DNA of 24,000 nt from Candidatus Hermodarchaeota archaeon (GTDB lineage: Archaea; Asgardarchaeota; Lokiarchaeia; Sigyniarchaeales; SOKP01), in the NCBI GenBank assembly GCA_048885765.1, contig JBHLLI010000050.1, positions 3,003-27,002 on the forward strand. Direction: 5' to 3'. Numbering within the stretch: the first letter of the stretch is position 1; the number at the start of each line of letters is the position of its first letter. The translations under genes and the position numbers were made by a program. The notes below the pieces were generated by a model. The model made no database searches. It saw only the letters and a list, made by a program, of their open reading frames with translations, and was not told the origin of the DNA. Below are positions 831 through 22,229 of this stretch, piece after piece.

Positions 831-1703
831 TTATTGTTGATTTTTTACATAGCTAGCTTCCATATAAAATCCAAGAAATATAACACCAAATATGATTAAA
901 TCAATTATTTCTACTACATTTATATATGAAGTATTTTCACCAAGAATACGTTGAAATAACGGTCTTAATATCTGGGAGAGTAAATATGCTGCAAACCCAA
1001 TCATTAAAATAAAAGAATTTACCTGTGAAAGCCGCTTATTTCTATGTGAGAATGCAAAAAGCCACACAATTACCAAAAGAGATGGAATAACTACAGCGGG
1101 TAACAATACACTTATTGAAGGCGTATCAGAGACTATTATAACTGCAGTAGATTCAATTACAACAACTATTATAACTATTATCAAACTAGATTTATTTCTT
1201 GATGTTTCATCTCTAAGATTTTGGAATTTATCTCTTAATGATAGCGAAAACAAAATCATCGTAGTACTTAAATAAATTAATGAAAGCACAGTAAAGATGA
1301 TAATAAAGTACCTGATTTTAATAACAAGTAAATTTAGTGGTTCAGGAAAGTAAAGATAAGTGAAATCAAAGAATAAATCTATCATTTTACCAAATGTCAA
1401 AAGAAGAAAAAAGATACCGAATAAGAAAGGAATATCTGAAAGAAATTGTTGCTCCTGCTTAAACCATTTGAAAAACATATACATTGAACTTCCAAAAAGT
1501 ATAAGAATTCGAACTAAGAGGATAATAACTACTAATTCCATCCCTTGTATATCGTTATAGGCTTGAATAATAATATCTAAATTCAGGAAATAGAGAATAA
1601 ATACCGACATAAAACCTATTAAAGAACCTGTTGAAAGCCCTAGCTTGTACCAATTACTTTTTTTCATATAAATAAACCTCTTTTTAAAAGTGATTTTATT
1701 CAT
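831..1703 (-). CDS. Polytopic membrane protein (about 8 predicted TM helices), unknown function
   Basis: 290-aa ORF made of repeated hydrophobic ~20-aa stretches separated by short polar loops. An alternative start is at M13 (nt 1667, MKKSNWYK). Confidence 0.6.
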   Translation of the reverse strand: MNKITFKKRFIYMKKSNWYKLGLSTGSLIGFMSVFILYFLNLDIIIQAYNDIQGMELVVIILLVRILILFGSSMYMFFKWFKQEQQFLSDIPFLFGIFFLLLTFGKMIDLFFDFTYLYFPEPLNLLVIKIRYFIIIFTVLSLIYLSTTMILFSLSLRDKFQNLRDETSRNKSSLIIVIIVVVIESTAVIIVSDTPSISVLLPAVVIPSLLVIVWLFAFSHRNKRLSQVNSFILMIGFAAYLLSQILRPLFQRILGENTSYINVVEIIDLIIFGVIFLGFYMEASYVKNQQ

Positions 1704-5356: not shown

Positions 5357-5965
5357 TTATTCTTGCTTATCCACAACATTTTCAAGGTAAACTTTTAAAT
5401 CCGCATTGCAATTATAACAAAATAATGGAATAGATTCAAATTCTATTCCACATTTTGGGCAAACCTTTTTACCTAAACTGGCAATTTCATGTAAATCTTC
5501 TGTTTTTTGTCTAAATCTGGAATCTAAAATTTTTTTAATAAAAATGGAAAGACCAATTGAAAAGATAATTAAAACACTTCCAAGCAGTATTGTATGTGTA
5601 AAATGAAATAGAAAAAAAGAACTGAAGTAATCAACTGAATATCTAGATAAAAAAACGTATGTGAAAAAGTTAGGAAAGAAAAATGTTAGTAGATTCATTG
5701 AATAGGCTTTTTTAAAATTAATATAAACAATTATTGGAATTACTGAAACCAAAATCCATATTAGATAAATAAAAAATAAACCAGGTAATATATTAAACAG
5801 AGTGTAGTTAGCAAAGAATTGTACTATTAATTTTTGTTCGATTGTTGTATCCCCATTGAAACTAAGATTAATTTGGTAATTAAAATAAAATACAACTAAA
5901 TTTAATATTAGAGTTTGAATTAGAAAGATGCAAAATTTATTTCTAATAATTTTGGTAATCTTCAT
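5357..5965 (-). CDS. Membrane protein with a C-terminal cytoplasmic zinc ribbon
   Basis: 202 aa with 4-5 hydrophobic helices, followed by CPKCGIEFESIPLFCYNCNADL (CxxC-x13-CxxC). Confidence 0.6.
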   Translation of the reverse strand: MKITKIIRNKFCIFLIQTLILNLVVFYFNYQINLSFNGDTTIEQKLIVQFFANYTLFNILPGLFFIYLIWILVSVIPIIVYINFKKAYSMNLLTFFFPNFFTYVFLSRYSVDYFSSFFLFHFTHTILLGSVLIIFSIGLSIFIKKILDSRFRQKTEDLHEIASLGKKVCPKCGIEFESIPLFCYNCNADLKVYLENVVDKQE

Positions 5966-6260: not shown

Positions 6261-9188
6261 ATGAGCTATACGTTTTCAAGAACAAAAATGATTGAAAAAA
6301 TTAAATTTGGGCTTCTAAGTCCTGATGAGATCCGCAAAATGTCAGCAGCTAGAATAATTACTGCTGATACATATGATGAGGATGGGTTACCTATACCCTC
6401 TGGATTAATGGATCAACGATTGGGTACTATAGAACCAGGCCAGCGTTGTCAAACATGTGGTAACCTTGTAAGTAATTGTATGGGCCATTTTGGTCATATT
6501 GAGCTCGCTAGACCTGTTATTCATGTAGGTTATGCAAAGAAGGTCTTAAAAGTATTACGAAGCATTTGTCCTGAATGTTCTCGTTTAATGCTTACGGAGG
6601 ATGAAAAAGAAAAGTTTAGGGAAGAACAAATTAAACATCGAAAAATCTTCTTTGAAGGAGATGAAGATGCAGCAAAAATTGTTTTTAAACGAGCAAGAAA
6701 GGCAAAAACTTGTCCCTACTGCGAAGCTAAAAAGAAGAAAATTATTATTGAAAAACCTACAACATTCTATGAAGAAGAAGAAGGAAAAGGTTCACGAAGA
6801 ATAACTCCTATAGAGATTTTAGAACGTTTAAAAAAGATGAGTGATGTTGATCTTAGAATTCTTGGTATTTCTCCGGAGAACGCTCGTCTTGAATGGGTTG
6901 TTTTTACAGTTTTACCAATACCTCCTGTGTGTGCTAGACCATCTATTACTTTAGATAGTGGTATTCGCTCTGAAGATGATTTAACACATAAATTAGTTGA
7001 TGTTATTAGGATTAATCAAAGATTAAGAGAAAATATTGACGCAGGAGCACCTCATTTAATAGTTGAAGACCTTTGGGAATTATTACAATACCATATTACT
7101 ACTTATTTTGATAATCAAGTATCTGGTATACCTCCAGCTAGACATCGATCTGGTAGAGCACTTAGAACTTTAACTCAGAGATTGAAAGGTAAGGAAGGTA
7201 GGTTTAGGAGTAATTTAAGTGGTAAAAGAGTTGATTTTTCGGCTCGTAGTGTAATTTCTCCAAATCCTTATATAAGCATTAATGAGGTAGGTGTTCCTAT
7301 AGAAATAGCCAAAATATTAACAATTCCCACTAATGTTAATGATTGGAATATTGAAGAAATGAAACAGATGGTATTAAATGGCCCATTTAAACATCCTGGA
7401 GCTAATTATATTATTCGGAATGATCGTAGAAGGATCGACCTAAGATATGTTAAAAATAGAAAAATTATTGCGGATATGCTCGCACCTGGGTTCACAATTG
7501 AGCGCCATTTAAATAATGGTGATTTGGTATTATTTAATCGTCAACCTTCTCTTCATAGGATGTCTATAATGGCTCACGAAGTAAAAATAATGAAAGGAAG
7601 AACTTTTCGCTTAAATTTAACAGTGTGTCCACCATATAATGCCGATTTTGATGGAGATGAAATGAACTTGCACGTACCGCAATCTGAAGAAGCTCGGACG
7701 GAAGCGGAATTACTTCTAAAAGTTCAAGAACATATATTATCTCCTAGATTTGGTGGTCCGATTTTAGGTGGTATTCAAGATTTTATATCAAGTGTTTTTC
7801 AATTTACAAGTAAAGACTCTCTTTATACTAAAAAGGATACATTGAAATTATTGTATAATGGAGATGTTTTCAAAAACAATCCTAATTTCAATTTGGACAA
7901 CCTAACTCCTGTTGTTGTTGATCCAGTACCTATGTATTCTGGTAAGGATATATTTAGTACCTTATTTCCAGATGATCTTAATATAAAAGTGAAATCTAAA
8001 TTTTGTAAAAAATGTGAAGTATGTGAAGAAGAAAATTGTTCATATGATGCGTATGTAGTAATTAAAAATGGACATTTAATAACGGGTACAATCGATGAAA
8101 ATTCTTTCGGTGCTATGCAATCAAATAGTATTTTACAAAGAATTATCAAAGATCATGGTAATGCAACAGGTAGAAGATTTTTAGACAGTGCAACAAAAAT
8201 GCTTTTATATGTTATTAGACAGAATGGAATGACTATGGGATTGGATGAGGTTTATGTTCATGGAGATGCATATGAAGCTATTCAAAAAATACTAGAGGAA
8301 GCAAATGAAGAATCTCAAAAGTTAATAAATGCCTTTTATGATAATGATACTAAAATCCTTAGAAGGGCACCTGGGCGTTCTATGAGAGAAACATTAGAAT
8401 TAAGAATCCGGCAAGTATTAGCAGAGGCTAGAAATAAAGGTAATGAAACTGCAGCGGAATTCATTGGAGATGAAGCTCATTCTGTTATTATGACTAAATC
8501 TGGTGCCCGAGGAAATATACTAAATTTAGGTCAGATGTCTGCGCTTGTAGGTCAACAAGCAATTAGAGGAGAGAGAATTAATAGAGGATATAGTATGAGA
8601 ACCCTTCCTCACTTTAAAATTAATGATCTCTCACCTAAATCAAGAGGATTTGTTTCTTCTTCATATAGAAATGGATTAAAACCAGTGGAGTTCTTCTTTC
8701 ACGCAATGGGTGGGCGAGAAGGATTAGTCGACACAGCAGTAAGAACTTCCACATCTGGATATATGCAACGTAGGTTGGTGAATGCTTTACAGGATATGGT
8801 GGTCGAAAATGATGGTACTGTGAGAAACTCTGATAAAAATGTTATTCAATTCTGCTTTGGAGATGATGGAATTGATGCAATGCATACTGATCATGGTGCT
8901 GCGGTAAATCTTGATGTCTTATTACTGAAAGCTAAAGCTCTAAATGTTGATGAAGTACGCGAAGAGATTAAAAAGGGGTCTTCATCAAAAAAACCTGAAC
9001 CTAAGAAAAAAATAGATACTGAGAAAGAACCAATAAAAGAAGTTTCTACTGTGCCAAAACCAACTGAGAAAGAAATGGATGAAGAATCATTAAAACAAAA
9101 ATTTGAGCAAGAAACAGGGAAAAAAGCAATTTGGCGTGGTAAAGAAACCAGCGCATATTTAGATTGGAAAGAAGAACAAAATAAATAA
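6261..9188 (+). CDS. rpoA1: DNA-directed RNA polymerase subunit A' (Rpo1N)
   Basis: N-terminal zinc motifs are present (CQTCGN...C-x-GHFGHIEL; CPECSRL). The catalytic motif is NADFDGDEMNLH. The ORF is collinear with archaeal A'/Rpb1 N-terminal two thirds. An AGAGGT Shine-Dalgarno-like motif lies 10 nt upstream of the ATG. Confidence 0.97.
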   Translation: MSYTFSRTKMIEKIKFGLLSPDEIRKMSAARIITADTYDEDGLPIPSGLMDQRLGTIEPGQRCQTCGNLVSNCMGHFGHIELARPVIHVGYAKKVLKVLRSICPECSRLMLTEDEKEKFREEQIKHRKIFFEGDEDAAKIVFKRARKAKTCPYCEAKKKKIIIEKPTTFYEEEEGKGSRRITPIEILERLKKMSDVDLRILGISPENARLEWVVFTVLPIPPVCARPSITLDSGIRSEDDLTHKLVDVIRINQRLRENIDAGAPHLIVEDLWELLQYHITTYFDNQVSGIPPARHRSGRALRTLTQRLKGKEGRFRSNLSGKRVDFSARSVISPNPYISINEVGVPIEIAKILTIPTNVNDWNIEEMKQMVLNGPFKHPGANYIIRNDRRRIDLRYVKNRKIIADMLAPGFTIERHLNNGDLVLFNRQPSLHRMSIMAHEVKIMKGRTFRLNLTVCPPYNADFDGDEMNLHVPQSEEARTEAELLLKVQEHILSPRFGGPILGGIQDFISSVFQFTSKDSLYTKKDTLKLLYNGDVFKNNPNFNLDNLTPVVVDPVPMYSGKDIFSTLFPDDLNIKVKSKFCKKCEVCEEENCSYDAYVVIKNGHLITGTIDENSFGAMQSNSILQRIIKDHGNATGRRFLDSATKMLLYVIRQNGMTMGLDEVYVHGDAYEAIQKILEEANEESQKLINAFYDNDTKILRRAPGRSMRETLELRIRQVLAEARNKGNETAAEFIGDEAHSVIMTKSGARGNILNLGQMSALVGQQAIRGERINRGYSMRTLPHFKINDLSPKSRGFVSSSYRNGLKPVEFFFHAMGGREGLVDTAVRTSTSGYMQRRLVNALQDMVVENDGTVRNSDKNVIQFCFGDDGIDAMHTDHGAAVNLDVLLLKAKALNVDEVREEIKKGSSSKKPEPKKKIDTEKEPIKEVSTVPKPTEKEMDEESLKQKFEQETGKKAIWRGKETSAYLDWKEEQNK

Positions 9189-18781: not shown

Positions 18782-18852
18782 TAGATAAAGTCGTACTACT
18801 TCACTGACTTTTAAATGAGTAACATTATATTAACCCAAATTCATTAAGTCAT

Positions 18853-19317
18853 ATGAATATAGTATTTAAGCAAATTAATGCTTCAAATTTGGATTTAATA
18901 GAAAATTTGGCTACAGAAGCTCATTTTGAAGGTTTCGAATTCGTTAAGCGAACTATTTTCGAATGGAAGAGTGGTTTAAATGACTTTAGTAAGCAGGGTG
19001 AGATCTTATTTGGAATATGTATATCAGATTTATGCATAGGACTTGGTGGGTTAAATGTTGATCCTTACATCAATAATCCTAACATAGGACGTGTTAGGCA
19101 TGTATATATATCCCCGAAATATCGTAGAAAAGGATTAGGCATTCTATTGTTAAATAAAATTATTCACAATAGTGCTAACCATTTTGAATTGTTGCGATTA
19201 TATACTAATAATCTAATCGCTTCCACATTTTACGAGTCATTAGGTTTTAAGCAATCATTTAGCTTAAAAGTAACTCATATCTTAAAAAATCTGGATAAAT
19301 ATCCAAAACTTCATTGA
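18853..19317 (+). CDS. GNAT-family N-acetyltransferase
   Basis: Acetyl-CoA motif A is present (RHVYISPKYRRKGLGILLLNKII, i.e. R/Q-x-x-G-x-G/A), followed by the YESLGF motif B region. 154 aa. Confidence 0.8.
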   Translation: MNIVFKQINASNLDLIENLATEAHFEGFEFVKRTIFEWKSGLNDFSKQGEILFGICISDLCIGLGGLNVDPYINNPNIGRVRHVYISPKYRRKGLGILLLNKIIHNSANHFELLRLYTNNLIASTFYESLGFKQSFSLKVTHILKNLDKYPKLH

Positions 19318-19340: not shown

Positions 19341-19688
19341 TTATTCAATTTTGCCAGTTTTAACCCAACCTGAATTATCAGTTGCTACAATATTTTGTAT
19401 TTTTACCTTAGGATTAATGTATTTGATTCCTATTTTGCGAAATCGTTCTAAAACTATATCAAATGCTAATTGAACATCACTCTTCTTTTTTAAGCCAGTT
19501 AAGACCATTTTACCAGTAGAAAATATTAATATAGTAGCATGTGGTTTTTCTATGTACATTACAAGTCCTGGAAAACGTTCTGGGTTATACTCAGTATTAA
19601 CATAATTATTGGCGAGCTTGTTTAAATCTATCTTCTCTGTAATTTCAATTATTCCAATCCCAACAATATTTTCTATTTTATCGGTCAA
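19341..19688 (-). CDS. TATA-box-binding-protein homolog containing only one TBP repeat (truncated or single-domain TBP)
   Basis: IENIVGIG...IDLNKLA...EYNPERFPGLVMYIEKPHATILIFSTGKMVLTGLKK...A...RFRKIGI corresponds to TBP repeat 1. The second repeat starts (KVKIQNIVAT) and the ORF then ends 12 codons later. TTG start with GGAG 13 nt upstream. Only 23 bp separate its stop from the convergent GNAT gene. Confidence 0.7.
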   Translation of the reverse strand: MTDKIENIVGIGIIEITEKIDLNKLANNYVNTEYNPERFPGLVMYIEKPHATILIFSTGKMVLTGLKKKSDVQLAFDIVLERFRKIGIKYINPKVKIQNIVATDNSGWVKTGKIE

Positions 19689-19746: not shown

Positions 19747-20190
19747 TTAATTGGTCAATATTTCCTTAGCTGGAAGAACTAAACCGATCACTAGAAGACT
19801 AATTCCAACAACGAATGTAATCATACTTATTCCAATATATCCAATATAGATTTTATATATAATAAAAGTACTCCAAGATATCCCACCACCTATAAGAATT
19901 GCATACCAAGACCATTTTTCAGCTTTACGATAACTTTTTTGGTTTATTAAAACAACCATAGCTCCATTAGCTAATAGAATGCAACCGACTAATTTTTTTG
20001 TGATAATGTAAATCTGTGCAAATTCAGGAGCGGCACCTAAATACTGTTGGTATGTTAAACCAGTATAATATGCAAAATCACTCACAAACATTATTTCAGT
20101 TACAAATATCCATAGCAGGGCCATCACTATTGTATACATTCCCATAAAAAGTATTATAAATGAACCAATTTCTAAATTTGATTTATTCAT
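19747..20190 (-). CDS. Small 4-TM membrane protein, unknown function
   Basis: 147-aa ORF with four hydrophobic helices. A GAGGGAG Shine-Dalgarno-like motif lies directly upstream of the ATG. Confidence 0.55.
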   Translation of the reverse strand: MNKSNLEIGSFIILFMGMYTIVMALLWIFVTEIMFVSDFAYYTGLTYQQYLGAAPEFAQIYIITKKLVGCILLANGAMVVLINQKSYRKAEKWSWYAILIGGGISWSTFIIYKIYIGYIGISMITFVVGISLLVIGLVLPAKEILTN

Positions 20191-20261: not shown

Positions 20262-20295
20262 CAAATAAAAATATTCGTGAAACTGTTCTTTCACG
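20262..20295 (-). terminator. Hairpin plus T-rich tract after the S13-like gene
   Basis: CGTGAAA (20276-20282) pairs with TTTCACG (20289-20295) around a 6-nt loop, 5 nt after the TGA stop (20301-20303 on the minus strand). On the minus strand TTTTTATTT follows the hairpin. Confidence 0.35.
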
Positions 20296-20300
20296 ATAAA

Positions 20301-20912
20301 TCATACTAAATTACTAATAATTTTTATAAAATTGTCCTTATATTGTATCTCTATATTATTTTCCTCTAAATATTTAACAATTCTCTCTTTAATGATATAT
20401 CCATTTTTAAAATCCAAAAAATTTTTTCCAATGAACTCTGGTAAGTATTTTCTTTCTAAAACAATTTCATTTGAACCCCTAGTTTTCATTAAAGAATGAA
20501 TCTTGCTTACTATCTCAGAATAGATGCTCCGACCTCGAACTTTTAACCTTCTAGGATGCCTTTTTCCTTTAAAACTCTTGATCTTTTTCATTCTATCGAT
20601 ATCTCTTCTTTTTATTATCTCCAATTTATTTGTAATAATATGATGATCTTCACCCGTGTGTAAATCTTTTAATCGATTTACCATCCAATTAGGTATACCA
20701 TTCTCTATGGGATTCGATATTATATTATCAATTCTAGCTAATTGTTCTTCAGAGAGATCTCCTATCCTGAGATTAGGATTTAATTCTGCTGTTTTAACAA
20801 TCGCTTGAGCTAATCTCATATCAACTCCTTTTATTTGAGTCAATCCAAAGATAACTTTACTATTAGAGTCAATTATAGCTCGAGCTCTCCGTAAAAATTT
20901 CATCTTAATCAT
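20301..20912 (-). CDS. Divergent ribosomal protein S13 (uS13)-like protein with a non-canonical ~75-aa C-terminal domain
   Basis: Residues 5-128 (LTQIKGVDMRLAQAIVKTAELNPNLRIGDLSEEQLARIDNII...GIPNWMVNRLKDLHTGEDHHIITNKLEIIKRRDIDRMKKIKSFKGKRH...LKVRGRS) are collinear with archaeal S13. Residues 129-203 are not basic and are unlike the S13 tail. The gene is not in the usual S13-S4-S11-rpoD cluster. Confidence 0.7.
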   Translation of the reverse strand: MIKMKFLRRARAIIDSNSKVIFGLTQIKGVDMRLAQAIVKTAELNPNLRIGDLSEEQLARIDNIISNPIENGIPNWMVNRLKDLHTGEDHHIITNKLEIIKRRDIDRMKKIKSFKGKRHPRRLKVRGRSIYSEIVSKIHSLMKTRGSNEIVLERKYLPEFIGKNFLDFKNGYIIKERIVKYLEENNIEIQYKDNFIKIISNLV

Positions 20913-21017: not shown

Positions 21018-21356
21018 CTATTCTTCACGCCAGGTATATTTACAACTTGTACATTTGAAAAAGTGTGTACTTGGCTCATCTGAACTCCTAATTTGAACTT
21101 GCCAGGTTTCTACTTCCATATTCTTACATTTAGGACATTCTTTTCTAGTGATTGGGTTAGAAGTAATTTTATCCTTTTCAGATATAATTACTAAATTTTG
21201 TTCCAAGTCTTTTTCTTTCTTTTGGATGTTTTCTTTAATTTTTGCACTATCTGACATAAGTTCTCGTTCATAACCACACTTACATGCCAGAAAGGACGTA
21301 CCATTCATAATCTTTTTACGTAAGAGACTTGAACATTCAGGACAAAATTCAACCAT
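21018..21356 (-). CDS. tfs: Transcription factor S (TFS; RpoM/TFIIS C-terminal homolog)
   Basis: An N-terminal zinc ribbon CPECSSLL...CKCGY is present. The C-terminal ribbon is CPKCKN...WQVQIRSSDEPSTHFFKCTSCKYTW, with the acidic DE hairpin intact. Confidence 0.9.
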   Translation of the reverse strand: MVEFCPECSSLLRKKIMNGTSFLACKCGYERELMSDSAKIKENIQKKEKDLEQNLVIISEKDKITSNPITRKECPKCKNMEVETWQVQIRSSDEPSTHFFKCTSCKYTWREE

Positions 21357-21902: not shown

Positions 21903-22229
21903 CTAATTTAGATTCAGTTCCTTTTTAATTTGATACATTTTTTGATAGTAGTCAAAATTTAGCTTATTCATATCTTGGACAATATCCGCATTAAGCACTT
22001 TTTCACCAGAAGATTGGAACTCAATATCTCCTATTACATTAATTAAATCATTTTCCTTAAATTTGAACTCATCAATACTCATAAGATTAACATTAATTTC
22101 ACCAGTTTTATCATCTAAAACAATTTGCTTATCACTGACTCTGCTTTTAATGTATCCAGTAACTTGGATTCGTTCATCATCTAGAGAAATATCTTTAACT
22201 ATTCTTTGTTTAGCGAACTGAAAAGACAT
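21903..22229 (-). CDS. Small OB-fold protein resembling RPA2/RPA3/Stn1-type ssDNA-binding subunits
   Basis: The pattern is V-x-V-x-G-x-I (RIQVTGYIKS), then hydrophobic-LDD-x-TGEI-x-V, then a second strand block INVIGDIEF, then ADIVQDMNKLNFDYYQ, a C-terminal helix like the DMNE...H/Y segment of RPA32-type OB domains. It is divergently paired with PCNA. Confidence 0.5.
   Translation of the reverse strand: MSFQFAKQRIVKDISLDDERIQVTGYIKSRVSDKQIVLDDKTGEINVNLMSIDEFKFKENDLINVIGDIEFQSSGEKVLNADIVQDMNKLNFDYYQKMYQIKKELNLN

Follow-up and report, generated by a model that had tools for sequence, protein, structure and literature searches.

A uS13-derived protein with a new winged-helix-like domain, encoded outside the ribosomal operon in Asgard archaea

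The locus described here raises the question of what a gene stands for that encodes a recognisable body of the ribosomal protein uS13 but ends in a different domain: a ribosomal protein, a derivative of one, or a protein with another task. The gene lies at 20301..20912 on the minus strand of a 24,000-nucleotide stretch of contig JBHLLI010000050.1 (Candidatus Hermodarchaeota archaeon, assembly GCA_048885765.1), and this whole stretch is called the window in the following. An earlier reading of the sequence alone (the sequence-only reading) had described the gene as a stand-alone, divergent uS13 paralog with a novel C-terminal domain in place of the basic tail. Our analysis shows a conserved, selected and fast-evolving chimera in which a uS13 body is joined to a new winged-helix-like (WH) domain, located outside the ribosomal operon and named S13-WH in the following. 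The main result, which the sequence-only reading did not foresee, is that this domain belongs to a wider, mobile Asgard family, which is recurrently joined to fragments of the translation machinery and to Roadblock and REC modules, and which tends to occur in pairs.

The uS13 body and the replaced tail

The gene and its two parts are as follows.

20301..20912, minus strand: S13-WH fusion open reading frame, intact, 203 residues from the first ATG, TGA stop at 20301-20303
20529..20876, minus strand: uS13 body, residues 13-128 (Pfam PF00416), with an H2TH-like N-terminal domain, a helical region and the KIKSFKGKRH...LKVRG motif, without the basic C-terminal tail
20304..20522, minus strand: C-terminal winged-helix-like domain, residues about 131-203, with the motif E-x-x-L-E-R-K-Y-L-P-E-F; an unannotated domain family

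The open reading frame proved real and intact, as had been proposed. Since the gene callers (P0001, 200 residues) and the ortholog P0002 begin at the second ATG (20903), this is probably the real start, which results in a protein of 200 residues. The S13-like nature of the N-terminal part was borne out by the Pfam family Ribosomal_S13, which matched residues 13-128 with E = 6e-31 and 108 bits (gathering cut-off 31). Canonical uS13 proteins of Asgard archaea comprise 162-166 residues, share 70-100% identity with one another (mean 82%) and end in ...VRGQRTKSTGRHGLVVGVxRKK. Compared to these, the body of S13-WH showed 60-65% identity. The altered motifs that had been noticed before were found again in this comparison, with IKGVDMR, FKGKRH and VRGRSIYS in the window protein and IKG(V/I)GRR, YKGVRH and VRGQRTKS in the canonical proteins. 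The substitutions hit positions at which 121 canonical Asgard uS13 agree to at least 95%. Altogether, 15 of the 69 positions conserved to this degree are changed in the window protein, compared to 0-4 in canonical sequences. The VRGRSI change is confined to the window, while the close ortholog P0002 retains VRGQRT.

The divergence claimed for the protein is also reflected by the NCBIfam equivalog models for archaeal uS13, whose cut-offs were missed with 134.4 against 159 (NF003140) and 130.9 against 175.55 (TIGR03629); the canonical Asgard protein P0070 passes the first with 184.7 and stays just short of the second with 173.5. A Foldseek search with the full-length model returned uS13 chains of archaeal (Pyrococcus) and eukaryotic ribosomes (E = 1e-6, 41-42% identity), and the S13 core carries a net charge of +9 compared to a canonical mean of +10.8. 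The body probably still binds RNA.

In uS13, the lysine/arginine tail threads to the P-site tRNA. In the window protein, this tail (...STGRHGLVVGVxRKK) is replaced by the WH domain straight after VRGRSIYS. A remnant of the basic tail was sought in the other two frames of the S13-WH strand and none was found, both frames being dense with stops. A frameshift as the source of the C-terminus, which had been named beforehand as an observation that would speak against the proposed paralog, is thereby excluded.

For the selection test, the window gene was compared with that of its ortholog P0002 at the syntenic locus L001. The two proteins showed about 81-82% identity, a nonsynonymous divergence (dN) of 0.11 and a ratio of nonsynonymous to synonymous divergence (dN/dS) of 0.41. 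In the same genome pair, the ribosomal proteins S7, S12, S27e, L44e and L30e showed a dN/dS of 0.014-0.059 at 86-98.5% identity, and PCNA one of 0.023. The value for S13-WH is thus about 7-30 times that of the ribosomal proteins in the same genomes, and it exceeds about fourfold the value of canonical Asgard S13 pairs, for which mostly about 0.06-0.13 was determined. It is also significantly below 1, with 26 synonymous among 75 changes against 19.5% expected (p = 0.0015), and constraint was found in both halves of the gene (dN/dS 0.47 and 0.32). Since selection holds the ratio below 1 and both halves are constrained, the gene is functional and not a pseudogene. The differences per codon position (window against L001 10001..10609) are nearly flat with 0.115, 0.095 and 0.17. 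In its evolution, S13-WH behaves unlike an essential structural ribosomal protein.

A winged-helix-like domain family in Asgard archaea

The structure of the C-terminal domain was modelled with AlphaFold2 from an alignment of 22 domain copies (A3), which also served for the domain profile. The model reached a pLDDT (predicted local distance difference test) of 90.9 and comprises an H-E-H-H-E-E topology of the winged-helix type (H3-18, E22-26, H27-34, H49-57, E60-65, E68-73; alpha1-beta1-alpha2-alpha3-beta2-beta3). Within the model of the full-length protein, the domain showed a pLDDT of 88-95. Together with the alignment to canonical uS13, this underlines that the basic tail has been replaced by a folded C-terminus of about 75 residues, as had been predicted.

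The novelty ascribed to this domain held in each comparison made. No Pfam family matched, and a sequence profile found no significant match in the PDB. Foldseek returned nothing significant from the PDB (best E = 0.13, TM-score at most 0.57) or from BFVD (best 5.6e-3). The weak Foldseek neighbours were winged helices, namely eS10, Stn1, ORC/Cdc6 and STIV F93, with eS10 of 40S heads at the top (E = 0.13). A kinship of the domain with eS10, Stn1 or ORC was not adopted, since the similarities are weak and were taken to indicate the fold class only. A description of S13-WH proteins or of the WH-like domain was not found in the literature. The C-terminal domain is a new, Asgard-restricted WH-like family without a match in Pfam, the PDB or BFVD, and we refer to it as ERKYLPE after its most conserved motif, E-x-x-(I/L)-E-R-K-Y-L-P-E-(F/I).

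This motif is located at the junction of strand 1 and helix 2. Since it lies outside the usual recognition helix, the domain would seem suited to protein-protein rather than to DNA binding. Within the family, the domain is near neutral, with net charges of -9 to +6 (+2 for the copy in the window), and its third helix is not basic.

When 1.84 billion representatives were searched exhaustively with a profile, 17 WH-domain proteins were found. With the domain profile, a word-indexed search for homologs gave 4 proteins only, and a metagenome scan with a subset of 6 sequences led to 2 loci. Pfam scans of the 17 proteins revealed the following architectures.

P0126, P0127, P0128, P0135: WH with an S13 body
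P0131: WH with the SRP54 M domain alone (SRP_SPB), without the NG domain
P0140: WH with EF-2 domains III-IV-V (EFG_III/IV/C), GTPase absent
P0136: WH with Roadblock/LC7 (Robl_LC7)
P0139: WH with REC (Response_reg) and a zinc ribbon
P0130, P0132: WH with zinc ribbons
P0125, P0133: tandem pairs of WH
P0129, P0134, P0137, P0138, P0141: WH alone

Similar combinations were observed at the level of loci. L032 encodes a fusion of zinc ribbon, Roadblock and WH, while in L031 a gene for REC, WH and zinc ribbon is followed by a Roadblock gene. In L035, a second gene (907..1161, plus strand) starts 15 nt past the S13-WH gene P0135 and opens with a WH domain (hidden Markov model E = 7e-20; 65 bits with the 22-copy profile, compared to 97 bits for the window copy). 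These adjacent genes suggest that the domain works in pairs. A stand-alone member is encoded near a gelsolin-domain gene (weak Pfam match), and Ras/Arf-family GTPases are common on contigs carrying WH-domain genes.

In P0135 and P0143, part of the S13 tail is kept before the WH domain; in the window lineage it is lost. By sequence, at least three groups can be told apart among the WH domains attached to S13. Based on the partial tails and on these groups, the fusion of S13 and WH is either old or recurrent. In neighbour-joining trees, built for the S13 body as well as for the WH domain, long branches were pulled to the base and monophyly was left unresolved, and these trees were not used as evidence. 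As an observation apart, the WH protein P0142 (L023 2889..3167) and its relatives P0133 and P0134, stand-alone or tandem, are rich in arginine, alanine and glycine. With a contig G+C of 31% for L023, this may indicate a transfer from a different lineage.

Operon position, copy number and gene neighbourhood

In the canonical case, uS13 is encoded in the S13-S4-S11 operon. All 19 canonical loci fetched, 14 from Asgard and 5 from other archaea, showed S4 downstream of S13, and S11 as well where the flank reaches. Among the loci of the long form, which combines S13 body and WH domain, neither S4 nor S11 was found in any of the usable flanks, namely those of the window (24 kb), of L001, L002, L003 and L006 (all encoding P0002), and of L026 (P0144), L028 (P0126), L033 (P0127) and L035 (P0135). 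The neighbourhoods of the long-form loci differ from one another and represent several distinct lineages. The long form is also rare, as a search of 5.8 billion proteins gave 10 clusters at 90% identity, with lengths of 188-232 residues, compared to more than 590 canonical uS13. Its architecture is retained across these 10 clusters down to 45% identity, and all of them originate from AT-rich Asgard contigs. The fetched contexts of WH domains comprise 29-34% G+C, similar to canonical Asgard S13 loci. Both types were seen together in a single assembly, GCA_048940845.1, with the long form P0126 on contig 611 and a canonical S13-S4 pair (P0070) on contig 116; the mixed composition of this assembly is dealt with below.

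Altogether, the S13-WH gene is likely a paralog, although on indirect grounds. Of the corresponding claim in the sequence-only reading, the part that rests on rarity, on the site outside the operon, on the missed equivalog cut-offs and on relaxed constraint is supported, while a canonical rps13 in the window genome was not demonstrated. The counter-possibility stated in the same place, that this is the sole S13 and that the whole lineage has the extension, becomes unlikely in view of the same rarity, operon position, cut-offs and dN/dS.

Two further observations concern the annotation and the canonical operon. The proteins P0002, P0126 and P0144 carry the GenBank label '30S ribosomal protein S13', and the window protein lies below the NCBIfam equivalog cut-offs. 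The S13-S4-S11 operon, otherwise tight, is not contiguous in every Asgard genome: some have 1.3-2.9 kb of additional sequence at the S13/S4 or the S4/S11 junction (L016 10426..12277; L011 10958..13853; L007 5096..6383).

In the window, the S13-WH gene has the following surroundings.

21018..21356, minus strand: transcription factor S (TFS), upstream neighbour; Pfam Zn_ribbon_TFIIS E = 9e-17, RSSDEP acidic loop intact
20265..20296, minus strand: terminator-like hairpin TCGTGAAAGAACAGTTTCACGA with a T-rich run, beginning 5 nt past the S13-WH stop codon; consensus match only
19747..20190, minus strand: polytopic membrane protein of 147 residues, downstream neighbour; no Pfam family, membrane call from the hydrophobic sequence

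The gene thus stands alone between TFS and a membrane-protein gene, in agreement with the earlier description. With its T-run, the hairpin is a putative terminator (1 seen compared to 0.2 expected in shuffles). The window has a G+C content of 29.5% and its nearest relatives are metagenome-assembled genomes (MAGs) labelled Promethearchaeota, i.e. Asgard archaea. Its archaeal information-processing genes comprise rpoA', rpoA'', L30e, NusA, S12, S7, L44e, S27e, a TBP-like gene, TFS and PCNA, and a gene for a Ras/Arf-family GTPase is also present. In the window and in L001, the S13-WH gene is located within a conserved block of such core genes. The order TFS, S13-WH, membrane protein, TBP is shared by the window with the P0002 genomes (e.g. 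L001) only; P0002 itself was found as an identical protein with the same synteny in three independent MAGs. The membrane proteins adjoining other S13-WH genes showed no detectable homology to the 147-residue protein of the window. The idea of a conserved neighbour was accordingly rejected: the small membrane proteins beside several WH genes are non-homologous, and the adjacency to TFS is confined to the lineage of the window and P0002.

Several other features of the window were recorded. The TBP-like protein (19341..19688, minus strand, 115 residues) is encoded two genes from S13-WH and comprises a single repeat (Pfam TBP E = 3e-25). Compared to its L001 counterpart it showed 48.7% identity and a dN/dS of 0.32, which makes it another fast-evolving, truncated copy of an information-processing gene. 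Between this gene and S27e lies a GNAT acetyltransferase gene (18853..19317, plus strand, 154 residues), for which L001 has no aligned sequence (0% identity, about 18800-19250), pointing to an insertion or deletion between close relatives. A small OB-fold protein (21903..22229, minus strand) matches the Ten1 family of the CST complex (Pfam Ten1_2 E = 9e-8); its gene is divergent to PCNA, and the intergenic region between the two is 94-96% identical to L001. RpoA' (6261..9188, plus strand, 975 residues) carries a long C-terminal extension rich in lysine and glutamate, and upstream of its gene a membrane/zinc-ribbon open reading frame (5357..5965, minus strand) is found instead of rpoB.

Possible role of S13-WH and comparison with known systems

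As the best explanation, we consider it about evenly balanced that S13-WH is a paralog-type uS13 derivative, in which the S13 body sits on the ribosome and the WH domain serves as an adaptor, which would make S13-WH a placeholder or modulator of the 30S subunit and not the housekeeping uS13. Through its S13 body, the protein would be directed to the place of uS13 in the 30S head, or to the rRNA of the head, whether the subunits are mature or still immature. As a protein-protein adaptor, the WH domain would probably pair with other WH-domain proteins, and this pairing would tie the ribosome to regulators of the Roadblock/small-GTPase type. A protein that lacks the tail and places a bulky domain at the tail's exit point would modulate the 30S subunit in its assembly, in hibernation or in a specialised subpopulation.

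A number of observations weigh against this explanation. A canonical rps13 was not found for the window genome or for the three P0002 MAGs, in searches of low sensitivity: the genome scan showed only the long form in JBHLNW, with exact 8-mer patterns that would catch just 32% of canonical Asgard S13, and when GenBank accession numbers were compared for 30 S13 clusters among the matches listed, none of the canonical copies fell within the blocks of the three P0002 MAGs. In GCA_048940845.1, a second canonical S13-S4 pair (P0055, contig 61) is present in addition to the one described above. With two canonical loci beside the long form (L028, L029, L030), the assembly has to be regarded as a mixed bin, probably of at least two Asgard genomes, and the co-occurrence with the long form is therefore only suggestive. 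Furthermore, the synonymous divergence (dS) of S13-WH, at 0.27, is the lowest of 17 genes compared between the window and L001 (0.63-1.55 for the other 16), which could inflate the dN/dS if synonymous sites are constrained. The low dS could stem from recombination in the recent past, after which the protein changed rapidly, or from a constraint acting on the synonymous sites; an Rfam scan of the window revealed no RNA family that would account for it. Ribosome binding, WH-WH pairing and the link to Roadblock proteins and GTPases are suggested by the domain architecture alone. Finally, the fusion partners of the domain are diverse, and a connection to translation may be over-read from three architectures.

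Among the rival explanations, the one that carries most weight, although we regard it as unlikely, is a nucleic-acid binder without a ribosomal role, in which the H2TH-type fold of S13 and the WH domain would have been co-opted for DNA or non-ribosomal RNA, for example in the regulation of transcription. Winged helices most often bind DNA, and the N-domain of S13 belongs to the H2TH class, as do the Fpg/Nei DNA glycosylases. The neighbouring genes for TFS and the single-repeat TBP-like protein would fit this picture, as would the HxlR-type regulators found two genes off in L026 and L033. However, the TFS/TBP neighbourhood is not kept in the other S13-WH lineages, and the domain itself is near neutral, with a third helix that is not basic and with its conserved motif at the strand 1/helix 2 junction. 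Moreover, the partners SRP54 M, EF-2 III-V, Roadblock and REC suggest translation machinery and protein-protein signalling, not DNA.

Next in weight and rather improbable is the explanation that S13-WH is the only, structural uS13 of its lineage, which would have left the S13-S4-S11 operon and gained a C-terminal extension on the 30S head, much as the 40S head bears winged-helix ribosomal proteins and extensions specific to eukaryotes. This could be reconciled with the basic body and uS13 fold, with the conserved block of core genes in two related genomes, and with the tolerance of E. coli to deletion of the S13 tail. The missing second S13 in the P0002 MAGs would also agree, but the searches had low power; the top weak Foldseek matches to eS10 winged helices of 40S heads point the same way, but are not significant (E = 0.13). 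A sole structural uS13 is difficult to reconcile with a dN/dS of 0.41 where ribosomal proteins compared between the same two genomes show 0.014-0.059, with 15 of 69 near-invariant positions altered and equivalog cut-offs missed, and with a position outside the operon in every context seen, compared to 19 of 19 canonical loci inside. In addition, the same domain is found on an EF-2 without GTPase and an SRP54 without NG domain, which cannot be sole functional copies. The least weight falls to a functionless gene, either a decaying duplicate or an artefact of assembly or annotation. It could explain the near-even substitutions over the codon positions (0.115, 0.095, 0.17) and a dN/dS that is high for a ribosomal-protein homolog, but it is largely refuted and very improbable: two genomes carry the open reading frame unbroken and at equal length, with a dN/dS significantly below 1 (p = 0.0015), the alternative frames are closed, the architecture recurs in 10 clusters down to 45% identity, the WH fold is predicted with high confidence, and an identical protein with conserved synteny occurs in three independent MAGs.

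Taken to its furthest, the reading of S13-WH as a ribosome-bound derivative with an adaptor leads to a broader scenario, which as a whole is speculative and improbable. The ERKYLPE domain might be a dedicated Asgard adaptor that couples truncated ribosome-docking modules (uS13 body, EF-2 III-V, SRP54 M) via WH-WH pairing to Roadblock/LC7-small-GTPase and two-component signalling. S13-WH would then be a placeholder or regulator of the 30S head, and thus a prokaryotic forerunner of the control of ribosome assembly and translation in eukaryotes by paralogs of ribosomal proteins and EF-2 (Mrt4, Rlp24, Efl1) and by Roadblock-GTPase systems (Ragulator-Rag).

Irrespective of its role, the new domain family, for which Pfam, the PDB and BFVD hold no match, can now be named and modelled. 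Where S13-WH genes in public MAGs carry the label '30S ribosomal protein S13', they can mislead estimates of completeness and phylogenies built on marker genes. The protein also constitutes a concrete target for pull-down experiments and cryo-EM in cultured relatives of Lokiarchaeia.

Compared to known systems, S13-WH resembles archaeal and eukaryotic uS13 (S13p/S18e; PF00416, TIGR03629/NF003140) over residues 13-128 (E = 6e-31, 60-65% identity), in its fold and in its basic body. In contrast to S13-WH, these proteins possess the basic tail and, at canonical archaeal loci, the site in the S13-S4-S11 operon, and they have no extra domain of 70 residues. With winged helices such as the eS10 N-terminal domain, the Stn1 C-terminal WH, the ORC/Cdc6 WHD and STIV F93, the ERKYLPE domain shares the predicted H-E-H-H-E-E topology and weak Foldseek similarity (TM-score 0.43-0.57), but none of these matches is significant, and the domain differs by being near neutral and by carrying its conserved motif outside the recognition helix. 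The Roadblock/LC7 (MglB-like) small-GTPase modules of Asgard archaea are connected to the family by two fusion arrangements (P0136, L032) and as a gene neighbour in L031; the window protein has neither a Roadblock domain nor a Roadblock neighbour, and the connection holds for the domain family only.

To our knowledge, no placeholder for uS13 is known in eukaryotes. Related proteins for other sites are Mrt4 (uL10), Rlp24 (eL24) and Efl1 (EF-2), eukaryotic paralogs that act as placeholders or biogenesis factors; according to PMC8481954, they are absent from archaea, which possess single copies, and arose only in the last eukaryotic common ancestor. The tail of Rlp24 recruits Drg1. There is no sequence relationship between Mrt4, Rlp24 or Efl1 and S13-WH, whose function is purely inferred. 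By analogy, however, S13-WH would resemble paralogs of the Mrt4/Rlp24 type in that a docking body is kept, the functional end is lost or replaced and a C-terminal protein-interaction element is gained. The pair Efl1/EF-2 has its parallel in the EF-2-derived relative described here (EF-2 III-V with WH). Ribosome biogenesis in eukaryotes is characterised by such paralogs, in which a docking body is combined with a gained interaction module. If S13-WH is indeed a selected uS13 derivative with an adaptor domain, the placeholder strategy would already have been explored in Asgard archaea, the archaeal group closest to eukaryotes, and the case for this is stronger because fragments of EF-2 and SRP54 as well as Roadblock proteins bear the same domain.

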